NCBI GenBank assembly: GCA_965207415.1
Contig: CBDBMD010000003.1
Span: 2,480,991-2,544,990 of the forward strand
Length of the DNA: 64,000 nt
Source: Dehalococcoidia bacterium
GTDB taxonomy: Bacteria; Chloroflexota; Dehalococcoidia; UBA2979
Direction: 5' to 3'
Position numbers and translations under genes: made by a program. The notes under the pieces were generated by a model. The model worked only from the letters and a program-made list of their open reading frames with translations, did not search any database and was not told where the DNA came from. This document shows positions 2,206-57,237 of the stretch, one piece after another (the first letter of the stretch is position 1; every line of letters starts with the position of its first letter).

Positions 2206-3138
2206 GTGACCGCCTCCGCGCCCGAGCCGCAGGCCGAGGATCGCGACCTCGCGGCGATCGAGGAGGCCGCGCTCGACCTCGGCCGGCTCGCGGGCGAGCG
2301 GATCACGGAAGCGCTCGCACGCGAGATCGTCGTCGAGTACAAGGACGAGACCACCACCGCGGGCGGCGCCCCGACCAACCCCGTCTCCGAGACCGATCGC
2401 GCCATCGAGGCGCTGCTGCGCGAGCAGATCGCCGAGCGCTTCCCCGAGCACGGCGTGATCGGCGAGGAGGTGGGCGACGACGACGAGGCCGGCCGCGAGT
2501 TCGTCTGGGTCCTCGATCCGGTCGACGGCACCGCGAACTTCGTCAACGGCTTCCCGCTGTTCGCCAGCTCGATCGGCGTGCTCCGGAGCGGGCGGCCCGT
2601 GGTGGGCGCGATCTGGTGCTCGACCTCGCACGCGCTGCGGCCCGGCGTCTACCACGCGCACGAGGGCGGCCCGCTCTGCTTCGAGGGCGAGCCGGCGCCG
2701 CTCGGCCGGCCCAGCGTCGGCGTCACGCGCCGCCTCGGCGCGGCGCCGGGCGGCGCGCCGGGCCGCCGGCGCAGCCTGGACACGCGAGTCACGGGATCGG
2801 CGGCGCTGGAGTGCGCCTTCGTCGCCGCCGGCATCTTCCAGTCGGCGATCTTCGGATCGCCGAGCATCTGGGACGTGGCCGCCGGCGTCTCCCTCGTGCG
2901 CTCCTCGGGCCGCGTCGCGCTCACGATGCAGGGGAAGGAGTGGAGCGACCTCGAACGCTTCGAGGCGCCCGCGTCCGTCCGCGGCGACCGCCCGCCGACG
3001 ATTCGCGACTGGCGGCAGCCGCTGATCCTCGGCACGGAGGAGGAAGCCGAGGCGCTGGTCCGCCGCTCGCGCAGCCTCGGAGTGCGCTGGATGCGGGCGC
3101 GCTGGCGGCTCAGGCAGCGGCTGCGGCGCTGGCTCTAG
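2206..3138 (+). CDS. inositol monophosphatase family protein (IMPase/SuhB-like)
   Basis: 310 aa. Metal-binding motif WVLDPVDGTANFVNGFPLFASSIGV and the downstream WDVAAG motif are characteristic of the IMPase/FBPase fold. Confidence 0.8.
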   Translation: MTASAPEPQAEDRDLAAIEEAALDLGRLAGERITEALAREIVVEYKDETTTAGGAPTNPVSETDRAIEALLREQIAERFPEHGVIGEEVGDDDEAGREFVWVLDPVDGTANFVNGFPLFASSIGVLRSGRPVVGAIWCSTSHALRPGVYHAHEGGPLCFEGEPAPLGRPSVGVTRRLGAAPGGAPGRRRSLDTRVTGSAALECAFVAAGIFQSAIFGSPSIWDVAAGVSLVRSSGRVALTMQGKEWSDLERFEAPASVRGDRPPTIRDWRQPLILGTEEEAEALVRRSRSLGVRWMRARWRLRQRLRRWL

Positions 3139-3973: not shown

Positions 3974-4801
3974 CTAGGGCTGTTCGACGACCTCGCGCGT
4001 GCGGATGCCGAGGCCGAGCCGCAGCGCCGTGCAGTGCATCATCATCGTCGCCAGCGCAGGCAGCGCGGCGTCGACGACCGCGCGCGCCTCGGCGATCGCC
4101 TCCGCGCTCACGCCGGCGGCGCGCAGGGCGTCCTCGTCGGCGCGCAGCGGTTGCGCGAGGAAGCGCGTCGAGGAGCGCGCGTAGAAGTAGAGTGCGCGCC
4201 CACGCTGGCGGAACAGCGGGTAGGCGGAGAGGTGCTGCAGCTCGTCCCACGCCGCCTCGAGGTAGCCGGGCCAGACCGCGATCGCGCGGTACAGCTCCGG
4301 CGGACGCACCAGCTGCAGCACCTCGGCCACCTCCGGCAGCGGACCGGCAGCCGCCGAGGCGAGCTCCACCTCGCGCGCCAGGTGCGCGCGCTCACGCTCG
4401 CCGTCCTCGCGCGGGGCGGGGCGGCCCTGCCCGCCGACCGAGGGCGCCTCGCGCGCCTCGGCGAGGGCGGCGCAGAGCAGCAGCAACTGCGGCTGCACCA
4501 GGTGGAAGGCGTCGAGCACGGCGAGCAGGCAGTCGAGGTCGTCCGCGGTGAGCGCACCGCCGAGCAGCGTCTCGCGGCTCAGCGTGGGCTGGTAGACCTC
4601 CTCGACGGCGTCGAGCGCCATGTCCGCCATGTAGAGCGCGCTGCCGAGGAAACCCGCGGTCTCCACGGACGGCTCGAGTTGCGGCCAGACGGCCTCGAGC
4701 ACTCCCTCGCAGGCCCCGAGGGCGGCGACCACCTCGGGCACGAAGGGCGAGCGCAGCGCGGCCGCGACGGCCTCTGCAGTGGGTGACGGCGCGGCGGTCA
4801 T
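3974..4801 (-). CDS. hypothetical protein (possibly halocarboxylic acid dehydrogenase DehI-family-like)
   Basis: 275 aa ORF, Ala-rich with plausible codon usage and no clear catalytic motif. The DehI-like assignment is a weak recollection only. Confidence 0.35.
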   Translation of the reverse strand: MTAAPSPTAEAVAAALRSPFVPEVVAALGACEGVLEAVWPQLEPSVETAGFLGSALYMADMALDAVEEVYQPTLSRETLLGGALTADDLDCLLAVLDAFHLVQPQLLLLCAALAEAREAPSVGGQGRPAPREDGERERAHLAREVELASAAAGPLPEVAEVLQLVRPPELYRAIAVWPGYLEAAWDELQHLSAYPLFRQRGRALYFYARSSTRFLAQPLRADEDALRAAGVSAEAIAEARAVVDAALPALATMMMHCTALRLGLGIRTREVVEQP

Positions 4802-43980: not shown

Positions 43981-44130
43981 CTCGCCGTCAGGCGTGGTGG
44001 CACAGGGGAGGCCGACGCAGCGCGCGCCAGTATAGCAGCGCGCTCCGCGGCGCTCTCCCCGCGCGCCGTGGCGTGCAACCCATAATCGCGTCCTGCGGAT
44101 AGGATGTAGGGACTCCCGGCGAGGAGGCGC

Positions 44131-45495
44131 GTGGCCGAAGACCAGACCCCTCCGCCTCGGCGCTCCGCGCGCCATGTCAGCGCCGCGAGCCTCCTGACCG
44201 CGGTGGTCGTGATGCTGCTCGTCGCCGCGGCCACCGCCGCACTGGTCCGTACCCTCAACGAGGAGCCTGCGGAACCGCCGGCGGTCCGGATCACTCCGCT
44301 CACCCGCACGGCCACCCCCGCCCCGACTCCGTCGCCATCGCCAACCCCGACGGCGACGCCGACCCCGGCCTCGACGCCTTCGCCCACACCGACACCCTCG
44401 CCATCGCCGACGGCTCCGCCGACGCCCTCACCAACACCGACAGCGACGCCGTCACCGACGCCAACGGCCACGCCCACACCGACCCCAACGCCTTCCCCCA
44501 CCCCTACTCCCACTCCCACTCCCACCCCTACTCCCACTCCCACTCCCACTCCCACCCCTACTCCCACTCCCACTCCCACTCCTACGCCGACACCCACGCC
44601 GACCCCAACACCCACGCCGACTCCAACCCCGACCCCGACACCAACCCCCGTCCCCGGCGAAGTTGCAGCGAACCCGGAGCGCGTCCAAACGGGCCACACC
44701 CTCGTCGTGCAGGCCTCCGCCGCCGGTTCCGTCCTGGCGCGGATCGAGTTCCGAGGCACCTCGTACTCCCTGGTGCCGGTCGCTGATGGGTTCTGGGGCG
44801 TCTTCGCGATCCCGGTGGACGCCGAACCGGGCGAGGAGTCCGTGCGCGTCACGTTCCACGACGCCAACCGCGCACAGATCAGCGAGGCGGACGCGACCTA
44901 CGTCGTGGTCGAGATACCACGGGACGTCGAGCACATCACGTTGTCGGAGGAGGCAGCGGCGCTCCTGAACGAGGAGGATGCTCAACGCGAGGCGGATCTG
45001 CGCGCCGAGCAGTTCGCGCAATCCGACCCCGATCCGGCGTGGACGGAGCCGTTCCTGCAACCCGTGCCCGACGCGCAGGTCACCGCACCGTTCGGCAGCG
45101 GCCGCTCCTACAACGGCGGCCCAGTGACCAGCTTCCACAGCGGCCTCGACTACGGCGGGAACGAGGGCGACCCGGTGCTGGCCGCCGCGCCAGGCCGCGT
45201 CAGCTGGACCGGCGCGATGCCGCTCCGCGGCAACAGCGTGATCATCGACCACGGCGCCGGCGTGAAGAGCGGCTACCACCACCTCTCACGCATCGACGTC
45301 GCCGTCGATGGCGCCGTGGCGGCGGGCGACCAGATCGGGGCGGTCGGCTCGACCGGCGTCTCAACCGGTCCACACCTGCACTGGGAGGTCAGCATTCACG
45401 GCGTGAACGTCGATCCGCTCGCCTGGCTCTTCAACTCGTTCCTGGCGAGCGGGGGCTTCAGCCCTCCAACGCAGCCAGAGTCAGAGCAAGAGTGA
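44131..45495 (+). CDS. M23 family metallopeptidase with N-terminal TM anchor and long Thr/Pro/Ser repeat linker
   Basis: M23 motifs HSGLDYGG and [15 protein letters not shown] helix [19 protein letters not shown], then about 110 aa of (PT)n/(TPS)n. Confidence 0.8.
44290..44650 (+). repeat. coding tandem repeat: (ACNCCN)n, including nested (ACTCCC)n / 24-30 nt units, encoding Pro-Thr repeats
   Basis: Direct inspection: cccacccctactcccactcccact repeated three times with internal ACTCCC hexamers (about 44505-44590), flanked by degenerate ACGCCGAC-type units. Confidence 0.8.
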
Positions 45496-46189
45496 CGATC
45501 GCCGCCGTCTCCACGCGCAGCCTGCGAGGTCCAAGACTCACCGGCAGCGCACCCTCCCCGATCAGCCGCTCGCGCTCCTCGGGCGTCCAGCCGCCCTCCG
45601 GCCCGATGTAGATCGCCACGGCGAGCGGCACGGGCGAGAAGCCGGCGAGCGCCTCGGCGACGGTCCGGGCCGCGCCGGGGTCGGCGATCAGCCGCGGCGC
45701 TCCGGCGGGAGGCTCCTCGCCGAACGAGGGCAGCGAGGCGCGTCCGCACTGCTCGGCCGCCTCGCTGGCGATCCGCCGCCAGCGCTCGACGCGCCCCTCG
45801 CCCGGCTGCATCACCGCGCGGTCGCTCGCCAGCGGCGTGATCGCCGCCACGCCGAGCTCCGTCGCCTTTTCCACGATCCAGTCGCCGCGCTGCCCTCGAG
45901 GGAACGCGCAGAGCAGCGTGACGGCGACCGGCGGCTCAGGCAGCGCCTCGAGCGGCTCACCGATCGCCAACCTGACCCCCTCCGCCGCGGCGGCGGCAAC
46001 GGTTGCGCTCCACTCTCCGCCGCTGCCATCGAAGACGGCGAGGCCGTCGCCCGGCCGCAGCCGCAGCACGCTGCGCAGCCGGTGCGACTGCGCGTCATCG
46101 AGGCGCACCTCGACGCCAGGCTCGAGCCGCGCGCCCGGCACGCAGAGCCGCCTCACGGGCTCGCCTTCCCCGCGCCCACCGCGCACCAC
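45458..46189 (-). CDS. rsmE: 16S rRNA (uracil1498-N3)-methyltransferase RsmE
   Basis: An N-terminal PUA-like region followed by a SPOUT-type domain; about 240 aa. Position after prmA as in dnaJ-prmA-rsmE operons. The exact start is uncertain. Confidence 0.7.
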
Positions 46190-47097
46190 TCCTCGTCCTG
46201 CTCAACCGCCACATCCTCGAGGCCCGCGCCGCGCGCGGCCGCCAGCACCTCGGAGACCCGATCGGCCATGAAGCCGCTGAGGACCAGCCGCCCGCCCGGA
46301 CGCAGCGCGCGCGCCATCGCCGGCAGCAGCTCGCACACCACGCCCGAGGAGATGTTCGCCGCCACGAAGTCGTACTCGTCCACCGCGCCGCGCTCCGGGT
46401 CGAGCGAGCCTCGCAGTGCCTGCACGCTGCCCTCAAGGCCGTTGCGCCGCACGTTTTCGCGTGCTGCTTCCACCGCGTCCGGATCGCTGTCGAGCGCGTC
46501 GACGCGGGAGGCGCCCAGCCGCGCCGCCGCAAGCGCGAGCACGCCGGACCCCGTCCCGAGGTCGAGCACCACGTCGCCGGGCGCGCACTCGCGCTCGATC
46601 GCCGCGAGGCAGAGCCGGGTCGTCGGGTGCTGGCCGGTGCCGAACGCCTGCCCCGGATCGAGGCTGATCGCCAGCGCCTCGCCCTCCCCGGCGGGCTCCC
46701 AGGACGGGTGCACCACCAGCCGCCCGATGTGCAGCGTCGTGAAGTGCTCGCGCCAGAGCGCGGACCAGTCGAGGTCCTCGACGGGGCGATAGCGCAGCCG
46801 GGGCAGCGGGCCGCGCAACGGCAGCGCGGCCAGCCGCCGCCGCACCACGCGGCGCTCGCGGGGCGCCAGCGGGGCGGGCAGGAACGCGCGCACGGTGGCG
46901 TCGGCCGGCTCGACCGTGTAAGCGAACTCGCGCTCGTCCGAGGTCTGGATGCGCGGCTCGAGGGCGACCGCACCCGCGGTCATCGCGCCGAGCGCGTCCG
47001 CGACCAGCTCGGCGTCGGAGAGCGGCAGCCGAACCGTCAGCTCGACCCAGGCAGCGGAGCCGCCGGGAGCGGCGCGTGCGTTCGCGCCCACCGTCAT
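46153..47097 (-). CDS. prmA: ribosomal protein L11 methyltransferase PrmA
   Basis: SAM-binding motif VVLDLGTGSGVLALAAARLGA, the typical PrmA N-terminal domain WVELTV and about 314 aa length. Confidence 0.85.
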   Translation of the reverse strand: MTVGANARAAPGGSAAWVELTVRLPLSDAELVADALGAMTAGAVALEPRIQTSDEREFAYTVEPADATVRAFLPAPLAPRERRVVRRRLAALPLRGPLPRLRYRPVEDLDWSALWREHFTTLHIGRLVVHPSWEPAGEGEALAISLDPGQAFGTGQHPTTRLCLAAIERECAPGDVVLDLGTGSGVLALAAARLGASRVDALDSDPDAVEAARENVRRNGLEGSVQALRGSLDPERGAVDEYDFVAANISSGVVCELLPAMARALRPGGRLVLSGFMADRVSEVLAAARGAGLEDVAVEQDEEWCAVGAGKASP

Positions 47098-47100
47098 GGG

Positions 47101-48222
47101 CTAGGAGAAAGCCTCCCGGATCCGGCCGAACAGTCCGCGATCGTCGGCCGGCAACGAGGGGGTCCCGAGCGAGTCGGCGAGCTGCTCCAGCAGCTCGCGC
47201 TGCTCCTCGGTGAGCTTCGTGGGAGTCACCACGTGCGTTCGCACCAGCAGGTCGCCGCGTCCGGCGGCCTGGAGGTGGGGAACGCCGCGCCCGCGGACGC
47301 TGAAGATGTGGCCGGGCTGAGTGCCGCCGGGCACGTCGATCGTGACCGGATCGCCCTCGAGCGTCGGCACCTCGATCTCCGCGCCGAGCGCGGCCTGCGC
47401 GGGGTTCAGCGGCAGCTCGTAGACAAGGTGGTCGCCGCGGCGCTCGAAGTGCTGGTGATCCTCGATATCGAGGTCGAGGTAGAGGTGGCCCGGCGGGCCA
47501 CCGCGAAGGCCGGCGTCACCCTCGCCGCTGAGGCGGATCTGGTGCTCCTCGTCGACGCCGGCAGGGATGTTCACGGAGCGCGTCACGGTGTCGGCGCGGA
47601 GACCACGGCCTCCGCAGCCCATGCAGGGGTCGGTCACCACCTCGCCGTCGCCGCCGCAGCGGTTGCACAGCGCCGAGTTGACGAAGCGCCCGAACAGCGA
47701 CTCCTGGACGCGCCGGATCTCGCCCTGCCCGTTGCACTCCGGGCAACTCGAAGGCCGGCTGCCGTTCGCCGAGCCGCGGCCGTCGCAATCCTCGCAGCGG
47801 CCGACGCGCTGGAACTGGATCTCGCGCTCCGCGCCGAAGACCGCCTCCTCGAAGGCGACGGCGATCGAGGCGCGCCGGTCGGCGCCGCGCTGCGGGCCGG
47901 GCCGGCGCGATCCGGTGCCGCGGAAGAAGGCATCGAAGATGTCGCCGAAGCCGCCGAAGCCCTCGAAGCCGGAGAAGCCGTGCTGTCCGCCACCGTTGAG
48001 CCCGGCCATGCCGAAGCGGTCGTAGGTACGGCGCTTCTCCGGATCGGAGAGCACCTCGTAGGCGGCGTTGACCTGCTTGAAGCGATCCTCGGCGCCCTCG
48101 CTCTTGTTGCGATCGGGGTGGGAGTCCATCGCAGCCTTGCGGAAGGCGCGCTTGATCTCCTCCTGCGAGGCGTCGCGCTGGACCCCGAGGGTCGCGTAGA
48201 GGTCGACTTCCGTGGCCATCAA
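47101..48222 (-). CDS. dnaJ: molecular chaperone DnaJ (type I, with zinc-finger domain)
   Basis: J domain with HPDRN, a G/F-rich region and four CxxCxGxG repeats ([32 protein letters not shown]). Confidence 0.9.
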
Positions 48223-48282
48223 CCGCTCAGTCTACCGAAGAGTCGGGTAGAGCGCGTGAGCGGCGACGGTCGAGCGCCGTGA

Positions 48283-49320
48283 TCACAGCGCACCGCGCAC
48301 ATAGCGAGTCGCGAGGTACTCCTCGACCCAGTTGGTGGTGCTGCGCCACTGGCCGTCGGCGCCACGCGTTGCCTGCAGTCGCCCACGGATCGCGGCCGTC
48401 CGCAGCGCCGAGTGCGAGATCCGCGCACCTGCCAGCGCAGCGAGCGGCACAAGCCGGCCGGGCCCCGCCACCGCCGGAATGACGAACTTGTAGAGGTTGT
48501 CGAGGATCGCCCGCGCAAGCAGTTCGCCGAGCGGACCAATGTCTCCTCGGTCGGCCTTTCGCAGCGCGGCCAGATATGTGCTGCGCTGGTTCTTGTAGAT
48601 GATCGCCGGCGGATAGCCGAGCCGGACGAGCAGCAGGTTGAGGACCAGGCGGCCCGCCCTTCCGTTGCCATCAAGGAAGGGGTGAATCTGCTCGAACCGG
48701 CAGTGCAGCGCAGCGACAGTCTCCGGGAAGTGCGCGGCGCCAGGCTCCAGGCGGTTCACGTCGGCGATCCAGTCAGCCATCAACGCCGGTACATCGGTCC
48801 ATGCGGGGGGCGTCATGCCCTCCGGGAACGGCTGGACCTCGTGTCGCCGGTACGCCCCCGGCCGCTCTGCCGAATCGGCGACCGGATGGGGCGCGACATC
48901 CCAGACGGGTTCCATCGCAACCTCATGAATGCGCCTGACCTCGGTCAGCGAGATCCACTCGCCGCCGGACCACTCGCCCGGCTCGATCGCCTGGCCGTAG
49001 ACCCAGTCGGCGGCGTTCGCGTAGCCGCGGACTTCCATGTACTCCGCAAGCTGCTTGTCGCCGACAGCGCGGCCTTCCGCAAGCAGGGCCTCGACCTGCT
49101 TCAGGACGAGCGTATTGCCCTCGATCGCGGTGGAGTGGTGAGCCTCCTCGAACCAGATGCCGCGCCAGATGTCGGACGCTTCCAGGCGGTTGGGGAGTCC
49201 CCCCATGCGCGTCCACAGTTCGCTGATCTGCGTCTCGAGCCGGGCGTAGATGGCAGCGCGAGGCGGGCGTCCGCGCCGCACCGCCCGGCCCTCCCGAAGT
49301 TGATCAGGTTCACGCCTCAT
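48283..49320 (-). CDS. Fic-domain protein (class II: N-terminal inhibitory helix + Fic core), inserted between dnaK and dnaJ
   Basis: Fic active-site motif HPFLDGNGRAGRLVLN (HxFx[D/E]GNGRxxR). An upstream inhibitory-helix motif STAIEGN fits (S/T)xxxE(G/N). 345 aa. Confidence 0.85.
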   Translation of the reverse strand: MRREPDQLREGRAVRRGRPPRAAIYARLETQISELWTRMGGLPNRLEASDIWRGIWFEEAHHSTAIEGNTLVLKQVEALLAEGRAVGDKQLAEYMEVRGYANAADWVYGQAIEPGEWSGGEWISLTEVRRIHEVAMEPVWDVAPHPVADSAERPGAYRRHEVQPFPEGMTPPAWTDVPALMADWIADVNRLEPGAAHFPETVAALHCRFEQIHPFLDGNGRAGRLVLNLLLVRLGYPPAIIYKNQRSTYLAALRKADRGDIGPLGELLARAILDNLYKFVIPAVAGPGRLVPLAALAGARISHSALRTAAIRGRLQATRGADGQWRSTTNWVEEYLATRYVRGAL

Positions 49321-49329
49321 AAATTGAAC

Positions 49330-49356
49330 CGTACACTTTCACCACGGAAGTGTACG
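49330..49356 (-). promoter_or_regulatory. hairpin CGTACACTT-N9-AAGTGTACG immediately upstream of the fic start codon
   Basis: A 9-bp perfect inverted repeat ending 10 nt before the fic ATG, followed on the minus strand by GTTCAATTT. It shares the CACTTTCAC/GTGAAAGTG core and a CGTGG loop with the dnaK terminator hairpin. Confidence 0.35.
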
Positions 49357-49365
49357 TCAGAGCCC

Positions 49366-49412
49366 CTGAAAAAGAAACCGCGCACTTTCACCGTGGCGAG
49401 TGAAAGTGCGCG
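49366..49412 (-). terminator. Rho-independent terminator after dnaK: CGCGCACTTTCAC-N8-GTGAAAGTGCGCG followed by GTTTCTTTTTCAG on the minus strand
   Basis: A 13-bp perfect stem with a U-rich tract on the transcribed (minus) strand, 44 nt after the dnaK stop. Confidence 0.6.
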
Positions 49413-49455
49413 TTACGCCCGGTCCGAATTGTGCCGCACACTTTCGCGCGCGACC

Positions 49456-51360
<1,905 letters not shown>

Positions 51361-51430
51361 CTCGTACCCCTTGTCGCGTTCCCTGTCGGTCGTGGTTCAT
51401 GCCGGGAGCACGGCTCCCGGTTCGTCGCTC

Positions 51431-52054
51431 CTACTCCGCGGCCTGGCCGCCATCGGCTGACCCGGCCGCGCCGCTGCCGACCACCACCTGGGCCGGCCGC
51501 AGCACGTAGTTCTCGATGCGGTAGCCCTCGCGCACGAGGGCGACGATCTGTCCCTCCGGACCCGGCGCGGACGAGACCGCCTCGTGCACCAGCGGATCGA
51601 ACGCCTCGCCTTCGCCGCCGATCTCCTCGACGCCGGCGCCGGCCAACATCTCCTTGAACTTGCGCTCCACCAGCCGGATGCCCTCGATCCACTGGTCCTC
51701 GGCGAGCGCGCCATCAACCGAGGTCAGGGCGCGGCTCAGGTCGTCGAGCGGCGGCAGACAGCGCGCGATCGTCTCGGCGAGCTGCGCTCGCGCGCGTTCC
51801 TTCCAGCGCTCCTCGGTGCGGCGCCGGAAGTTCTGCAGATCGGCAGCCGCGCGGGCGTGGCGATCCGTCAGTTCCGCGACTTCCGCCTCGAGGGCGGCGA
51901 TGCGCTCGGCGTCGCTCGACGCCTCGTCGGCAGCAGCATCCTCGGCCGGCGCTGCTGTTTCCCCGGCGCTGTCTCCTTCAAGAGGCACGTTGTCTTGCTC
52001 CTGGTTGTTCGTCGTTGAGTCCTGCGGGCGTCCGGTGGCCCGGGCGTCAGCCAT
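51431..52054 (-). CDS. grpE: nucleotide exchange factor GrpE
   Basis: An acidic N-terminus, a coiled-coil (ALEAEVAELTDRHARAAADLQNFRRR) and a C-terminal beta-domain. Overlaps the hrcA stop. Confidence 0.85.
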   Translation of the reverse strand: MADARATGRPQDSTTNNQEQDNVPLEGDSAGETAAPAEDAAADEASSDAERIAALEAEVAELTDRHARAAADLQNFRRRTEERWKERARAQLAETIARCLPPLDDLSRALTSVDGALAEDQWIEGIRLVERKFKEMLAGAGVEEIGGEGEAFDPLVHEAVSSAPGPEGQIVALVREGYRIENYVLRPAQVVVGSGAAGSADGGQAAE

Positions 52055-53060
52055 CCAGCTCGTGCAGCAGTTCGGTCATCAGCCGGGCGAAGTAGCGAAC
52101 GCGCGGGATCGTATGCCCGTAGTGCATCCGCGTCGGGCCCAGCACCGCGACGGAGCCGAGCGCCCCGCCGGGCTCCCCAAAGGCCGAGATGACCATCGTC
52201 CAGTCGTGGAGCCAGCTCCGCTCGTTCTCATCGCCAATCAACACGCGCGCGCCGGGGTCCGGGTTTTGCGGCGGCCGCAGCGCACCGCGCAGCTCGTACG
52301 CCTCGAGGTGCTCCACCGCGTCGAGCATGCGATCGGTGGTGGAGAACTCCGGCTGCGCCAGCGCCGCCCGGATGCCTTCGATGAAGAGCTGCGCCGCGCT
52401 CGCGCCTTCCGCCACGAGGTCGGCGATCTCAAGCGTGAGCCGGCGATCGTCGTCATCATCGAACTGCGGGGCGATCGTGCGGATCCGCTCGGAATTCGAG
52501 AGCGAGAGGCGGTCGTTGAGGCGCGAGGCGCGGGTGAGCAGCTCCGGCTGACCCTCATCCTCCGGCACGGGGACGATCCGTTCCTGGATGCTCCCGTCGT
52601 CCAGCACCCCCACCAGCAACGCGGCCCCGGGCCGCAGGTGCACCAGCTGCGCCTGCCGCAGGTGCGTGACCGGGCGCTGCGGCCGCGCCACGACGGCGAC
52701 GTTGCCGACCGCTCCCGCGAGGACCGAAGCCGCCAGCTGCAGCCACTCATCGAGGTCCGGGGGCGCCTGGTAGAACTGGTGCTCGATCGTCCGGCGCTCG
52801 TCGGCGCCGATCGGCTCCTCGGCCATCAGTTCCTCGACGTAGAAGCGGTAGCCGGTGTTGGAGGGGATGCGGCCGGCCGAGGTGTAGGGGTGCGTGATGT
52901 ACCCCTCCTGCTCGAGCGCGGCCAGCTCGTTGCGCACGGTGGCAGTGGAGACATCGAGGTTGTGGCGGTCGACCAGCGCGCGCGAACTCACCGGCGCAGC
53001 CGTGCCGATATACTCGTCTACGACGAGATTGAGGATGTCCGCCCGGCGCTGAGTGAGCAC
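52047..53060 (-). CDS. hrcA: heat-inducible transcription repressor HrcA
   Basis: N-terminal winged helix LTQRRADILNLVVDEYIGTAAPVSSRAL, about 337 aa, with a CIRCE element upstream. GTG start with GGAGGG SD. Confidence 0.9.
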   Translation of the reverse strand: MLTQRRADILNLVVDEYIGTAAPVSSRALVDRHNLDVSTATVRNELAALEQEGYITHPYTSAGRIPSNTGYRFYVEELMAEEPIGADERRTIEHQFYQAPPDLDEWLQLAASVLAGAVGNVAVVARPQRPVTHLRQAQLVHLRPGAALLVGVLDDGSIQERIVPVPEDEGQPELLTRASRLNDRLSLSNSERIRTIAPQFDDDDDRRLTLEIADLVAEGASAAQLFIEGIRAALAQPEFSTTDRMLDAVEHLEAYELRGALRPPQNPDPGARVLIGDENERSWLHDWTMVISAFGEPGGALGSVAVLGPTRMHYGHTIPRVRYFARLMTELLHELDG

Positions 53061-53087
53061 GGGCCCTCCATCCCGACTACCCGCAGA

Positions 53088-53114
53088 TTAGCACTCTCAT
53101 GGGGAGAGTGCTAA
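53088..53114. promoter_or_regulatory. CIRCE operator TTAGCACTC-N9-GAGTGCTAA (perfect match to consensus)
   Basis: Read directly at 53088-53114: ttagcactc tcatgggga gagtgctaa. On the minus strand, -10 TAAAAT (53123-53128) and -35 TTGACC (53147-53152) with an 18-nt spacer lie just upstream. Confidence 0.85.
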
Positions 53115-53122
53115 CACACTGG

Positions 53123-53152
53123 ATTTTAGCGGCCAGACGCCCGACTGGTCAA
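53123..53152 (-). promoter_or_regulatory. hrcA promoter (-35 TTGACC, 18 nt spacer, -10 TAAAAT) immediately upstream of CIRCE
   Basis: Hexamers read on the minus strand. The geometry places the transcription start at or next to CIRCE. Confidence 0.55.
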
Positions 53153-53176
53153 CGCTCGCACGGGCCCGGAGAGCGC

Positions 53177-53749
53177 ATGGACCGAGATTCGGACTCCCAG
53201 ACCGCCGCCGCGCCCGACGCCGCCGATCCCGCCCGCGCGGACGAGGCCCGCGACGCCTTCTCCGAGCTCTATGAGGCACACGCGACCCGCGTCTACCGCT
53301 ACCTGCTCTCCCGCACCAGCAGCGTCAGCGACGCCGAGGAGCTGACCTCGCGCACGTTCACCAACGCCTTCGCCAGCCTCGGCAGCTACCGCGGGCGCGG
53401 CAAGTTCGAGTCCTGGCTGATGACCATCGCGCACAACCTGCTGGCCAACTGGTACCGCGACCGTGGCCGCAGGCCGCAGGCCGCGCCGCTCGACGAGGCG
53501 CTCGCCGTGCCCTCGGACGCGCCGGGGCCGGAGTCGGCGCTCGAAACCATCGAGGAGACGCAGCGGGTGCGGGAGGCGGCGGCGGCGCTCGCGCCCGACC
53601 GCCAGCGCCTGATCACGCTCAAGTACGTCGACGGCCTCACGAACGCCGAGATCGGGCGCATCCTCGGCCGCAGCGAGGGCGCCGTGAAGGCCCTCCACCA
53701 CCGCACGCTGCGCCAGCTCGCCCAGGCGCTCGCCGCCGACTCGGGGTAG
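53177..53749 (+). CDS. ECF (sigma-70 family) RNA polymerase sigma factor
   Basis: Region 2 FSELYEAHATRVYRYL....AEELTSRTF and region 4 ITLKYVDGLTNAEIGRILGRSEGAVKALHHRTLRQL. The start at 53177 is only 25 nt from the hrcA -35 element. Confidence 0.7.
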   Translation: MDRDSDSQTAAAPDAADPARADEARDAFSELYEAHATRVYRYLLSRTSSVSDAEELTSRTFTNAFASLGSYRGRGKFESWLMTIAHNLLANWYRDRGRRPQAAPLDEALAVPSDAPGPESALETIEETQRVREAAAALAPDRQRLITLKYVDGLTNAEIGRILGRSEGAVKALHHRTLRQLAQALAADSG

Positions 53750-53834
53750 GCCCGCACCCGGCGTCCTGGCGGCCGGGTGTGGCGGCAGCCGCGCCCGCTC
53801 GCTACGATCGCAGCACCCCGGAAGGGCGCCGACC

Positions 53835-54482
53835 ATGGACGTCAACTGGCTCGGACACGCCTGCGTGCGATTGCGCACGCGCCAGGCCGCCGTGGTCATG
53901 GACCCGGCGAGCCGGGACGCCGGCTTCGACATGGGCCGGCCCGGCGCCGACATCGTCACGATCAGCCGCCACCATCCCTTCCACTCGCACGCCGCCGGCG
54001 TGCGCGGCCAGCCGATCATCATCGACGGCCCCGGCGAGTACGAGATCGAGGGCGTGCAACTCTTCGGCCTGCCAAGCCCGCTTCCGCGCGCCGGCGAGGA
54101 CGCGCCGAGCGAGCGCAACACCGCCTACGTCGTCGAGGCGGAGGGCCTGCACGTCGCGCACCTCGGTAGCGGCTGCGCGCCGCCGCGCGAGGACGAGGCG
54201 GGGCTGTTCAGCAACATCGACATCCTGATCGTGCCGATCGGCGGCGACGAGTCGGTCGCGCCGGAGCGGGCCGCCCGCACGGTGCGCGACCTGGAGCCGA
54301 CGATCGTGATCCCGGTGGGCTATGACGGACCCGCGGCCGAGGGCGAACAGCCCGCCGCGCTGCGCGCCTTCCTCGACGCCACCGGCCTCAGCGGCGGCGA
54401 GCCGCTGGCGCGGCTGAGCATCCGCCCGCGCGGACTCGGCGAGGAGCAGCGCGTCGTCCTGCTGGAGGCCTCGCGCCGCTAG
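53835..54482 (+). CDS. MBL-fold metallo-hydrolase (UPF0173-like)
   Basis: N-terminal MDVNWLGHACV and the HxHxDH-equivalent region ISRHHPFHSHAAG. 215 aa. Confidence 0.65.
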   Translation: MDVNWLGHACVRLRTRQAAVVMDPASRDAGFDMGRPGADIVTISRHHPFHSHAAGVRGQPIIIDGPGEYEIEGVQLFGLPSPLPRAGEDAPSERNTAYVVEAEGLHVAHLGSGCAPPREDEAGLFSNIDILIVPIGGDESVAPERAARTVRDLEPTIVIPVGYDGPAAEGEQPAALRAFLDATGLSGGEPLARLSIRPRGLGEEQRVVLLEASRR

Positions 54483-54504
54483 CGATCCTCCCGAGGCGGC
54501 GCCG

Positions 54505-55770
54505 TCAGGGCAGGTAGATCCTTGGGTTGCGGCGCACGCCGTTCAGCTCGACCTCGAAGTGCAGGTGCGGGCCCGTGGTGCGCCCGGTGAGGCCTGCGTA
54601 GCCGATGACCTGCCCCGCTTCCACCACTTCGCCGTGCTCGACGGCGAAGTTGCGCAGGTGTGCGTAGAGCGTCGCGAATCCGCCGCCGTGCGCGACCTTC
54701 ACATAGAGGCCGTAGGAGCAGCAGCGGTGACCGCCGACGAAGATCACCCTGCCGGCCGCCGCCGTCTTGATCGGGGTACCGACGGGGGCCTTGATGTCGA
54801 TCCCGAGCGGGTGGCTCGGACCGAAGTACGAGGTGATGATGTCCCGGGTGGGCCAGCCGAAGTCAGGCGAGACGATGCGCCCGCCGGGGACCAGAATCGT
54901 CGCCCCGGCCCGTACGGAACCGTCGCGCGGCAGGTCATTCGCCTCGATGATCTCCGCCACGTTGCCTTCGTAGCGCCTGGCGATCTCATCGAGGGTCTCG
55001 CCGCTGCGGATTTCGTGGATGATCCCGTCCACGCTCGGCACCCGCAGCACCTCGCCCACGCGGAGCAGGTCGGGCTCGTAGATGACGTCCATGTTGTTCC
55101 AGATGATGGATTTGGAGCGGATGCCGAAGCGCTGGGCGATGCCGCTGACCGTGTCGCCCTCGCGCACCTCGTAGCTGAGGAACAGCGAGCGCGGCTGCGC
55201 GTCCCACGCCAGAGCCACCAGCCCGGCCGACGCAGGAACAACCAGCCGGTTGGCCAGGTCCCCGGCATCGACATCCGGGAGGGAATCGCTCCGGGACCGG
55301 GTCACCGCCTCGTCCGGCGCGGGCTCCAGCTCGCTCGCGACCGGGGCGCCGGGCGATAGGGAACTCACGAGCGCCGGCCCGATGGGCGCGGGAGCGGACG
55401 GAGCCGGCGCGGCAAGCTGCTCCCAGGCCGGCGAGGCCGGCTGCCCCCAGGCCGCCGCGCCCGCCATGCCGGGCACCGCGATCTTCGCCGCCCTCAGGAC
55501 CGGCGTCTGAGCTGTGGATGTCACGGTGTCGGGGGGCCGGCCGACAGCGAGCACGACGAGCAAGATGAGCGTGACAACCGCCGCGAACAGCGCGGGCTGC
55601 GCCAGCGGGAGCCCTGGCGCGTCGCCGCCGGCAAGGCGCCGACGCTGGGCATACCCGAGTTCGCGCCCGCTCGTGGAAGGCGGACGCGGAAATCCGAGGC
55701 CGATGCTGCCGATGCCTCTTCCTCCTCCGGTCGGGGTGCGGCCACCCCCGCGCGCTGTGCCGCCAGCCAT
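54505..55770 (-). CDS. LysM-LysM-M23 peptidoglycan endopeptidase (paralog A), membrane anchored
   Basis: Two LysM repeats (YEVREGDTVSGIAQRFG; HEIRSGETLDEIARRY) and an M23 domain (GIDIKAPVGTPIKTAAAGRV, LYAHL, GPHLHFEV). N-terminal TM helix. Confidence 0.8.
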   Translation of the reverse strand: MAGGTARGGGRTPTGGGRGIGSIGLGFPRPPSTSGRELGYAQRRRLAGGDAPGLPLAQPALFAAVVTLILLVVLAVGRPPDTVTSTAQTPVLRAAKIAVPGMAGAAAWGQPASPAWEQLAAPAPSAPAPIGPALVSSLSPGAPVASELEPAPDEAVTRSRSDSLPDVDAGDLANRLVVPASAGLVALAWDAQPRSLFLSYEVREGDTVSGIAQRFGIRSKSIIWNNMDVIYEPDLLRVGEVLRVPSVDGIIHEIRSGETLDEIARRYEGNVAEIIEANDLPRDGSVRAGATILVPGGRIVSPDFGWPTRDIITSYFGPSHPLGIDIKAPVGTPIKTAAAGRVIFVGGHRCCSYGLYVKVAHGGGFATLYAHLRNFAVEHGEVVEAGQVIGYAGLTGRTTGPHLHFEVELNGVRRNPRIYLP

Positions 55771-55935
55771 CCGGGAATGGCGTTTTGCCCTAGAGGCACG
55801 CGGAATCCTAGCACGGCCTGCGCGCCGCTCGTCCCCGGCCGACTGTCACGCCGAGGGACCGTCAGGTCGATCGAGGAGCAGCGCGTCGTGCTGCCGGCGG
55901 CATCGCGCCGCGGGCGATCCTCCGAGGCGGTGTCG

Positions 55936-57237
55936 TCAGGGCAGGTAGATCATCGGGTTGCGGCGCACGCCGTTCAACTCGATCTCGAAGTGCAGGTGCG
56001 GGCCGGTGGTGCGTCCGGTGAGCCCGGCGAAGCCCAGGACGGTGCCCGCCGTGATCTCGTCGCCGCTCGCCACCGCAAAGCTTGCGAGGTGGGCGTACAG
56101 CGTCGTGAACCCGCCGTCGTGCTGCACCTCGACGTAGAGGCCGTAGGAGCAGCAGCGCGTGCCTCCCACGAAGATCACCGTGCCGTCCGCCGCCGCCTTG
56201 ATCGGCGTGCCCACCGGCGCCCGAATATCGATCCCCAGCGGGTGGCTGGGTCCGAAGTACGAGGTGATGATGTCCCGGGTGGGCCACACGAAGTTGAACG
56301 CCGAACTCGTCTGCGGCGCCGCGGCGACCGCGCTCGACGGCGCCGGTGTCGCTGCGGGAGCGGGACGGACCACGGCGGCTGGCCTCGCGACGATGCGCCC
56401 GCCGGGCACGAGAATCGTCGTGTCCGCGTAGATGCTGCCCTCCCGGTCCAGCCTGTTCACCTCGATGATGTCGACGATGCTGGCGTCGTAGCGCTCGGCG
56501 ATCTCGAGCAGCGTCTCGCCGTAGCGGACGCCGTGGAGGATGCCGCCCACGCTCGGCACCTGGATCTCATCTCCCACGTTGAGGAAATCCGCGTCGGGGA
56601 TGATGTCGATGTTGTTCCAGAGGATGTAGTTGGTGGCGATGCCGAAGCGTTCGGCGATCCCGAACACGGTATCGCCCTCCTGCACCTCGTAGCGGAAGAA
56701 CAGCGGGCGAGGCTGTGTCTCGCGTTCCTGGAGTTCGTCCTCGGCCGGCGCGGCCACGGCTACCCGCAACGCCGCTCTCGCGAGGTCGATCTCGGAAGCG
56801 GACTGATCTCCTGACGCGGCCGCCCGGGAAGAAGGCGTGTCGGCTCCCGGATACGTGAGCAGTGCGTTGACGAGCGGCGGCTCAATTCGCTCCGGGGCGG
56901 ACAGCGCCGGCGCCGCCGGCTGCTCCCAACTGGTTGCCCCGGCCATGCCGGGCAGCGAGATCTGAGCGGTCCTCAGTGCGGGATTCGGCTGCGTGGAAGT
57001 GACGGTCACCGGGAAGAACCCGGCGATCAAGACGAGGACGAGGACCAGGCCGACGAACGACGCGTACACCGCGGGCGGCGCCAGCGGCAGCCACGACAGG
57101 CCGGCGGCAGCGATCTGCCGCCGCTGCGACAACGGAAGCTCGCGCCCGGTTGGCGGGCGCGGTCGGGGGAGTACGGGGCCGATACTGTTGATGCGCGCCT
57201 CCTCCGGCCGGAGGCGACCACCCCCGGGGCCGCGCAA
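55936..57237 (-). CDS. LysM-LysM-M23 peptidoglycan endopeptidase (paralog B), membrane anchored
   Basis: Same architecture as paralog A. The 3' approximately 400 nt are nearly identical at DNA level to paralog A, with a Pro/Ala/Ser-rich linker inserted before M23. Confidence 0.8.
   Translation of the reverse strand: MRGPGGGRLRPEEARINSIGPVLPRPRPPTGRELPLSQRRQIAAAGLSWLPLAPPAVYASFVGLVLVLVLIAGFFPVTVTSTQPNPALRTAQISLPGMAGATSWEQPAAPALSAPERIEPPLVNALLTYPGADTPSSRAAASGDQSASEIDLARAALRVAVAAPAEDELQERETQPRPLFFRYEVQEGDTVFGIAERFGIATNYILWNNIDIIPDADFLNVGDEIQVPSVGGILHGVRYGETLLEIAERYDASIVDIIEVNRLDREGSIYADTTILVPGGRIVARPAAVVRPAPAATPAPSSAVAAAPQTSSAFNFVWPTRDIITSYFGPSHPLGIDIRAPVGTPIKAAADGTVIFVGGTRCCSYGLYVEVQHDGGFTTLYAHLASFAVASGDEITAGTVLGFAGLTGRTTGPHLHFEIELNGVRRNPMIYLP

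Follow-up and report, generated by a model that had tools for sequence, protein, structure and literature searches.

A tandem palindromic array beside a fic gene within the dnaK operon of a Dehalococcoidia bacterium, a candidate operator of the Fic protein

Genes for growth-affecting enzymes can lie under several palindromic operators arranged in tandem, as in hipBA, an autoregulated toxin-type gene with four TATCC-N8-GGATA operators, and stem-loops between dnaK and dnaJ are known to lower dnaJ expression in E. coli and B. subtilis. Among Fic proteins, CccR of Yersinia pseudotuberculosis is a class II Fic with a C-terminal helix-turn-helix (HTH), the dimer of which represses its own promoter through the operator AGATAATCAT-N26-ATGATAATCT, with a 46-nt footprint near -35 and -10 (PMC9755527). 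In a full-text search of the literature CccR was the only characterised self-repressing Fic-HTH protein found, and nothing was found on fic genes in dnaK operons or on the operator family described below. Here we analyse a 64-kb stretch of DNA from a Dehalococcoidia bacterium (the window), in which a fic gene lies between dnaK and dnaJ and the dnaK-fic spacer carries three palindromic elements in tandem (the array). The array belongs to the fic gene unit and not to dnaK. It is probable, though by no means assured, that the three elements are operators of the Fic protein itself and repress fic; the array would then be best read as a variation on the self-regulated Fic operator, with a DNA-binding domain built into the enzyme and a terminator-like junction peculiar to one lineage.

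A three-element array inherited with fic

Coordinates are positions in the window, features are read on the minus (coding) strand, and L-numbers (L001 and so on) denote the homologous fic-type loci that were compared with the window. The unit of the array is a palindrome of about 44 nt, in which a 12-nt arm (GAAAGTGnnCGG) and its inverse enclose 21 nt of spacer, and it is present three times in tandem:

49402..49445, minus strand: element I, GAAAGTGTGCGG-N21-CGCGCACTTTC, pattern match with 0 mismatches
49346..49389, minus strand: element II, GAAAGTGCGCGG-N21-CGTACACTTCC, pattern match with 0 mismatches, and alignment
49296..49340, minus strand: element III, GAAAGTGTACGG-N21 (TTCAATTTATGAGGCGTGAAC)-CTGATCAACTTC, alignment

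The minus strand carries three direct copies of GAAAGTGnnCGG, at intervals of 56 and 49 nt, and GTGAAAGTG has three copies in the 64 kb, all of them at the dnaK-fic spacer, against 0.04 expected. The original prediction had described two related hairpins and a third partial copy beside the dnaK stop, and had taken their paralogous stems for a duplicated structured element rather than chance palindromes. The repeats bear out both the paralogy and the duplication, but the unit that is duplicated is the palindrome of about 44 nt, and the hairpins are junctions in which the right arm of one element pairs with the left arm of the next. In element III the right arm is degenerate and the ATG at 49320 sits at the centre; its right half (..ACTCATCAACTTCG) is conserved throughout the dnaK-fic clade and is similar to the right halves of L016 and L023, which read GAACTCAACAAC. 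No match to the element pattern was found in the window outside the dnaK-fic spacer with up to 3 mismatches.

The nearest public genomes are metagenome-assembled genomes (MAGs) of Dehalococcoidia (Chloroflexota), among them CAXXDN010000001.1 (L001/L116), in which Fic and DnaK are 98% and 99% identical to those of the window, and OY839116.1 (L102). When seven dnaK-fic spacers were aligned, elements II and III proved orthologous to both elements of the other clade members (L002, L007, L009, L129), relative to which element I is an insertion. Element I and a T-tract behind it co-occur and are limited to the window, L001 and L102; the genome-wide scan described below also picked up element I, in L116 and L102. 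The T-tract aligns with the GGTTCAATT / GGTGCATTT box behind the other left arms.

Fic is highly conserved, with 5652 homologues at E <=1e-10, and fic stands beside dnaK in one Dehalococcoidia clade only. The loci with a Fic identity of at least 77% (L001-L010, L102, L129) retain the order hrcA-grpE-dnaK-fic-dnaJ; at the other approximately 70 loci, which are metagenomic and have 60-76% identity, neither dnaK nor dnaJ is in the neighbourhood. Nearly all of these dnaK-less loci nevertheless carry two tandem elements of like architecture within about 170 nt upstream of fic, and homologous fic loci with a two- or three-element array are found in Chloroflexota, Actinomycetota and Acidobacteriota. 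At 55 of 75 non-redundant loci the 170 nt ahead of fic contain an inverted repeat whose 10-bp arms have no more than 1 mismatch and whose spacer is 14-28, compared with 5.8% of dinucleotide shuffles. Arm variants are specific to a locus and common to all of its arms (TGTACGG, TGTTCGG, TGTGCGG, TGTATGG, GTCTACGC, TGTGTCG, GTTGCTG), and 9-mers taken from the arms of a locus scarcely recur in 234 kb of flanking DNA. Across the loci outside the dnaK clade no conserved neighbour gene was found, whether antitoxin or separate regulator, so that Fic is the only protein co-inherited with the element. Because the element follows fic into loci without dnaK, we assign the array to fic and not to dnaK.

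A strict form of the pattern, GAAAGTGNNCGG-N19-23-CGNNCACTTTC, was scanned over one genome per species in 185,579 species and returned 49 stretches, 12 of which lie directly beside a fic homologue and 5 of which are solo copies of the element type; the remaining 32 are unrelated, being long perfect palindromes or chance matches such as those in Collinsella and Streptomyces. The 12 fic-adjacent matches come from three phyla (Dehalococcoidia, Tepidiformaceae, other Chloroflexota, Microthrixaceae, Solirubrobacterales and Vicinamibacterales). In the complete chromosomes of the window clade (OY839116.1 and OZ244720.1) the strict pattern is found at dnaK-fic alone, and the idea that the motif might mark a regulon, or be an element of dnaK, is therefore unsupported. 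A dispersed intergenic repeat, comparable to repetitive extragenic palindromes (REP) or bacterial interspersed mosaic elements (BIME), was likewise considered and rejected, since the window holds no further copies and the strict pattern is confined to a single locus in both complete chromosomes, degenerate copies not having been searched for genome-wide.

The array over the predicted fic promoter, and the Fic protein

Whether an inverted repeat is conserved as DNA or as RNA may be read from the mismatches between its arms. In 85 arm pairs the helix cores comprise 626 Watson-Crick positions and 39 mismatches (6 G·U, 7 A·C and 26 of other kinds). As there is no excess of G·U, selection on an RNA helix is not favoured, and sense-strand RNA structure was rejected as the selected feature on the count of G·U against A·C. 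In 49 of 73 loci a TAnnnT hexamer lies 6-10 nt ahead of an in-frame start that lacks a Shine-Dalgarno (SD) sequence, an arrangement seen at 0.2% of internal control codons, and it falls within the last element or just past it; most of the array is thus predicted to lie upstream of the fic mRNA. The hexamer comes after the last right arm in the TGTGTCG class, and in the TGTTCGG class it is the box behind the last left arm (GGTACAGT), the right arm forming codons 2-5. The promoter-proximal element would accordingly cover the predicted -10 box, transcription start site and start codon, a position typical of a repressor operator, and the G·U count and the hexamer-start geometry together point to an array that acts at the DNA level.

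One consequence for the protein was noted in the TGTTCGG class (L013, L019, L025, L026, L029, L033, L041 and others), where the first 15 nt of fic contain the right arm and encode MSEHF or MSEQI; there, a putative operator half-site dictates a conserved N-terminal Fic peptide.

In the window itself two sites bear on the start of fic:

49328..49333, minus strand: TACGGT, a TAnnnT hexamer resembling a -10 box, in the left arm of element III, 7 nt ahead of ATG 49320
49290..49295, minus strand: GGGAGG, a sequence resembling a Shine-Dalgarno, 8 nt ahead of GTG 49281

The candidate starts are GTG 49281 (332 aa, SD-led) and ATG 49320 (345 aa, possibly leaderless). In L002, L007, L009 and L129 fic starts with an ATG that has GGAGG ahead of it and aligns with GTG 49281 of the window, these loci have no ATG at the position of 49320, and most close Fic homologues are called at 332-333 aa in the database. 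The ATG at 49320 sits 7 nt past TACGGT in the window, L001 and L102, which is the leaderless geometry of the family; if it is used, the missing SD is normal, and hairpin 2 (see below) overlaps the -10 box. A search by eye in the window clade found no convincing -35/-10 pair for the SD-led start. It had been proposed that fic, for want of an SD and with its start just behind a terminator-like hairpin, must depend on readthrough or antitermination, or on an unrecognised regulator that binds GTGAAAGTG. The necessity does not hold, as it hinges on ATG 49320, and either an SD-led GTG at 49281 or a leaderless ATG would suffice; the regulator is the best fit of the three options, and is likely to be Fic.

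The window Fic is of class II, as judged by [S/T]xxxE[G/N] N-terminal to the core and an active site of the form HPFx[D/E]GN[G/K]R: its inhibitory helix is STAIEGN and its active site HPFLDGNGRAGR, both invariant in the alignment of homologues (Pfam Fic, E 4e-18). The C-terminal domain is a winged helix of the MerR/Xis type, a DNA-binding HTH fold that was recognised by structure search alone; Pfam and NCBIfam searches with the C-terminal 67 aa and the N-terminal region found no DNA-binding family. Residues 1-8 (49281-49258) bear the motif RRGRPPR, of which RGRPxR is invariant in the homologues (RGRKSR in the most distant class) and resembles the core of an AT-hook. Each left arm is followed by an AT-rich box (TnCAnTT), into which RGRPxR might conceivably fit. 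Among solved structures its best relatives, by fold as by sequence, are FICD from human and Fic-1 from C. elegans (E 9e-25, 27-28% identity, TM, a structural similarity score, ~0.6), followed by BT_2513, and then by CccR, a Mycobacterium marinum Fic, Dde_2494 and SoFic, which aligned over the full length. No record of the exact 345-aa Fic sequence was found, and the members of its cluster are without names.

The resemblance to CccR extends from protein to DNA. The CccR structure 7xux aligns with the model of the full-length window Fic, both genes are free-standing and without an antitoxin partner, and both palindromes have arms of 10-12 bp, an unusually long spacer and a total length of about 44-46 bp, and lie over the promoter of their own gene (predicted in the window). 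With 12 + 21 + 11-12 bp the window element shares the overall design of the CccR operator, and the window Fic combines the sequence traits of the CccR type, namely class II, a C-terminal HTH and a long-spacer palindrome (>15 bp) over the predicted promoter. Arrays of the hipBA type are similar in that tandem palindromic operators, their number varying by lineage, cover the promoter of a growth-affecting enzyme gene, but the window fic has no separate antitoxin or repressor gene and the spacer within its palindromes is far longer.

With FICD/HYPE, the human AMPylase/deAMPylase of the Hsp70 BiP, the window Fic shares the inhibitory-helix and active-site motifs, and FICD is the best match of its catalytic region; the fic of the Dehalococcoidia clade also lies inside an Hsp70 operon. 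It differs from FICD in having a DNA-binding tail and in lacking a membrane anchor and tetratricopeptide repeats (TPR; no TPR family appeared in the Pfam results, and the FICD alignment spans residues 41-259), and most members of the family are not near dnaK. Its core also matches the PADLOC model PDLC03963 for SoFic anti-phage defence (E 4e-25, residues 37-244, partial) and the PADLOC candidate system PDC-S04 (E 3e-26). SoFic-type single-gene defence resembles the present family in the Fic core and in a patchy distribution with presence/absence polymorphism, but the C-terminal domain of the window Fic is different, and a defence activity is predicted from the core match alone. The window fic may have come into the dnaK operon as a defence gene, and the SoFic match would suit a mobile, patchy gene.

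Taken as a mechanism, autorepression would work as follows. A Fic dimer would grip the palindromes of the array through its C-terminal MerR/Xis-like winged helices, and the RGRP motif near the N-terminus might help by contacting the AT-rich box that adjoins every left arm. As the -10 box and start of fic lie under the promoter-proximal element, a bound dimer would shut the gene down, a case of negative autoregulation. In the Dehalococcoidia clade the whole array-fic unit sits between dnaK and dnaJ, and in the window subclade the hairpin at the I/II junction is probably where the majority of dnaK transcripts end. Since Fic is the sole protein inherited with the element, no model is more economical than self-repression by Fic.

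Several observations weigh against this picture. An identical element downstream of fic, and solo elements without fic in some Chloroflexota, call for more than autoregulation alone. The AT-rich box stands behind left arms only, an asymmetry that a symmetric dimer does not explain. The residues of the recognition helix do vary with arm class, but this covariation is confounded with phylogeny and is suggestive at most. Judged from its sequence, the start of the window fic is ambiguous between a leaderless ATG and an SD-led GTG, and a sigma-70 promoter scan of 48000-52500 found no site. The layout of the array, its conservation together with fic, its place over the predicted promoter and start, its DNA-level signature and the DNA-binding fold of the C-terminal domain are observed, and Fic as the binder, repression upon binding and termination by hairpin 1 are inferred.

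Hairpins, operon context and rival explanations

Three hairpins can be drawn in the dnaK-fic spacer, the first two of which are element junctions:

49369..49412, minus strand: hairpin 1 (element I/II junction), stem 49412-49379 and U-tract 49378-49369; terminator scan, fold and alignment
49330..49356, minus strand: hairpin 2 (element II/III junction); fold
49433..49454, minus strand: post-stop hairpin beside the dnaK stop; fold and alignment of dnaK-fic spacers

Hairpin 1 reads CGCGCACTTTCAC-tcgccacg-GTGAAAGTGCGCG, followed by the U-tract GTTTCTTTTT, and lies 44 nt past the dnaK stop; its GC-rich stem has 13-14 bp, it folds at -24.9 kcal/mol (z -6.7), and the terminator scan gives 14 pairs, 8 GC, a loop of 6 and the tail GTTTCTTTTT. 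Hairpin 2 has 9 pairs, the stem GUACACUU/AAGUGUAC and one C-G pair (cGTACACTT...AAGTGTACg), folds at -11.6 kcal/mol (z -2.4) with an interrupted helix, and ends 10 nt ahead of ATG 49320, after which comes GTTCAATTT. The 13-bp stem with its U-tract and the 9-bp hairpin of the original prediction are both confirmed, and so is its third copy, which forms a hairpin of its own with a GAAA loop, GUCGCGCGC-GAAA-GUGUGCGGC (-15.7 kcal/mol, z -3.5). The 3' half of this post-stop hairpin is the left arm of element I, and as it requires G·U pairs it can form in RNA only; 9 bp of it are kept in L001 and just 5 bp in L102 in the spacer alignment. The left arm of element I thus has two partners, the post-stop sequence (-15.7 kcal/mol) and the 5' arm of hairpin 1 (-19.9 kcal/mol). 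An Rfam 15 covariance-model scan of 44000-56000, with E up to 1, gave no match within 49296-49460.

With a GC-rich stem-loop, an immediate U-rich tract and a place downstream of the stop on the coding strand, hairpin 1 bears the sequence hallmarks of an intrinsic terminator, and as a terminator-like feature it is conserved in L001 and L102. The earlier claim that it terminates dnaK therefore stands as far as all its sequence features go, but whether transcription does end there, after dnaK, we rate at about an even chance. Unlike ordinary intrinsic terminators, which it resembles in its GC-rich stem of 13-14 bp and its U-tract past the dnaK stop, hairpin 1 has arms that are halves of two fic-associated elements, and its U-tract is a lineage-specific change of the AT box. 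By this comparison, an extra element copy together with the T-tract appears to have turned the I/II junction into a strong terminator-like hairpin in the window subclade.

The genes of the surrounding operon are as follows:

52047-53060, minus strand: hrcA
51431-52054, minus strand: grpE
49456..51360, minus strand: dnaK coding sequence, stop TAG 49458-49456; open reading frame list and translation
48283..49320, minus strand: fic coding sequence from ATG 49320, two candidate starts
47101-48222, minus strand: dnaJ

All genes around the spacer are on the minus strand, in the order hrcA-grpE-dnaK-fic-dnaJ-prmA-rsmE (from the open reading frame list and translation; hrcA, grpE, dnaJ, prmA and rsmE were assigned by Pfam), and the spacer has a G+C content of 54%, against approximately 70% around it. 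Directly upstream of hrcA lies a perfect CIRCE (controlling inverted repeat of chaperone expression), TTAGCACTC-N9-GAGTGCTAA, at 53088-53114 on the minus strand, which is the sole match in the window with up to 3 mismatches, and it is preceded by a promoter-like site of the sigma-70 type, TTGACC-N18-TAAAAT (53115-53150, minus strand). The operon thus already has a canonical heat-shock operator. In the fic-dnaJ spacer (48223-48282, minus strand) a separate imperfect palindrome, CCGCTCAcgcgcTCTACCcgactcttcGGTAGAcTGAGCGG, stands just ahead of the start of dnaJ; it is of another type than the fic elements, though its GGTAGACT recalls the arm variant AGCGTAGACTTT of L003 and L006.

The hairpins invite an explanation at the RNA level, in which the hairpin 1 terminator and its alternative structures determine how much of the transcription from dnaK goes on into fic and dnaJ, perhaps in step with ribosomes halting at the dnaK stop, with the internal pairing of element I as an antiterminator that competes with both the post-stop hairpin and the terminator. 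Such control would be served by the stability of hairpin 1 with its U-tract, by the alternative pairing and the competing post-stop hairpin at the energies given above, and by the finding that element I and the T-tract go together and are confined to the window, L001 and L102; moreover, the downstream dnaJ requires transcription across the spacer. Any set of tandem palindromes will give alternative pairings automatically, however, the arm mismatches of the family show no preference for G·U, the array lies upstream of a predicted leaderless start in most loci, the rest of the dnaK-fic clade has the elements at a junction without a U-tract, and the post-stop hairpin is reduced to 5 bp in L102. 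We regard control at the RNA level as unlikely on the whole, and it can be reconciled with the operator reading where hairpin 1 alone is concerned. The competing pairings of the element I left arm have an attenuator-like topology, which could simply come with tandem palindromes, or could be a recent recruitment that regulates passage from dnaK to fic and dnaJ; a true attenuation switch at the spacer is unlikely.

A quite different use of the elements would be as sites of recombination or mobility at the ends of a mobile fic cassette. A host recombinase would recognise them, and the Xis-like domain of Fic would serve as a directionality factor or an architectural one. Identical elements do flank fic as direct repeats in L113 and L126, a copy follows fic also in L006, L031 and L096, and L119 is an empty site for L113, from which it differs by exactly one unit of fic plus element between flanks that are 91% identical; L105 and L096 likewise differ in the presence of fic, L126 retains a duplicated fic 3' end plus element, solo elements lie beside tRNA-like sequence in L112 and L135, and fic is patchily distributed over several phyla in varied contexts. 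On the other hand, no recombinase was found among the conserved neighbours (no search aimed at intI was made), at most loci, the window among them, elements stand only upstream of fic, at a position fixed relative to the start codon, and homologous recombination between 44-bp direct repeats accounts for the deletions and solo copies. Nor do the arms match integron attC core sites, whose outer consensus is RYYYAAC ... GTTRRRY: compared by eye, arms of the form GAAAGTGTnCGG ... CCGnACACTTTC have their GTTCGG-like part on the inner side and do not fit GTTRRRY, and attC was rejected. We hold a dedicated mobility function to be quite improbable. The sequence patterns of presence and absence would fit gain and loss of the fic unit by element-element recombination, be it site-specific or plain repeat-mediated deletion.

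Sites for another host regulator, for instance of heat shock or stress, with a wider regulon that includes the dnaK operon, would suit the palindromic shape and the placement in a heat-shock operon, and CIRCE/HrcA and HAIR/HspR are palindromes of such operons; both differ from the array in sequence and spacing. Pattern searches with up to 3 mismatches found no CIRCE at the dnaK-fic spacer and no HAIR (the HspR-associated inverted repeat, CTTGAGT-N7-ACTCAAG) anywhere in the window, in agreement with the original prediction that the motif is neither. Since the operon already carries a perfect CIRCE and promoter upstream of hrcA, since neither the rest of the window nor, for the strict form, the rest of the complete chromosomes of relatives contains the element, and since it accompanies fic in three phyla among unrelated neighbours, its arm variants go with the Fic lineage and no regulator gene is co-inherited, this explanation is very improbable. 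Chance palindromes in an AT-richer spacer, for which nothing speaks other than the shortness of the motif, are already refuted by the copy number and by conservation in orthologues and distant homologues, and retain next to no probability. Fic autorepression remains the reading that we prefer.

The gain and loss of fic may be followed at individual loci. One-unit fic polymorphisms between direct element copies are seen in L113 1135-2325 against L119 1325-1393 and in L096 5004-6139 against L105 4818-4869, where the "empty" sites L119 and L105 keep a single element and the flanks are 91-92% identical. At L126 6032-7400 a remnant of the fic 3' end and an element lie upstream of an intact element-element-fic-element arrangement, suggesting a past tandem duplication. 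The solo, fic-less palindromes of the element type at L112 5171-5213 and L135 6307-6349 are in Thermoleophilia MAGs, approximately 150-200 nt from sequence resembling the 3' end of a tRNA gene. At several loci of Chloroflexota the element has beside it a conserved small open reading frame of about 57 aa (MKLLFRSAIAVLACVDSVIASVARPWAHRLRVLD...RRRR), which lies to one side of fic or the other (L113 ~2330-2510, minus strand; L119; L105; L031 ~4136-4200).

Implications for Fic regulation

What had been supposed to be a heat-shock hairpin motif is replaced by a concrete and testable picture of a fic array, for which 49296-49445 is a defined DNA probe for footprinting. For annotation, the locus is a case in which the fic start is ambiguous and a terminator can arise from the halves of operators. 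The clade in which the closest bacterial relatives of the BiP AMPylase lie inside the Hsp70 operon is also a natural place to seek AMPylation of DnaK in bacteria. It is conceivable, if decidedly unlikely, that the FICD-like Fic AMPylates DnaK and that array-bound Fic serves as a roadblock or terminator switch for the flow from dnaK to fic and dnaJ; were this true, one protein would link the modification of Hsp70 with the Hsp70:Hsp40 expression ratio.

Beyond this operon, the comparison brings out an uncharacterised and widespread family of FICD-like Fic proteins in Chloroflexota, Actinomycetota and Acidobacteriota, with a tandem operator array, as we read it, of its own and a DNA-binding tail. 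Its likeness to CccR suggests that self-repression of the CccR style may be a general curb on potentially toxic AMP-transferases.

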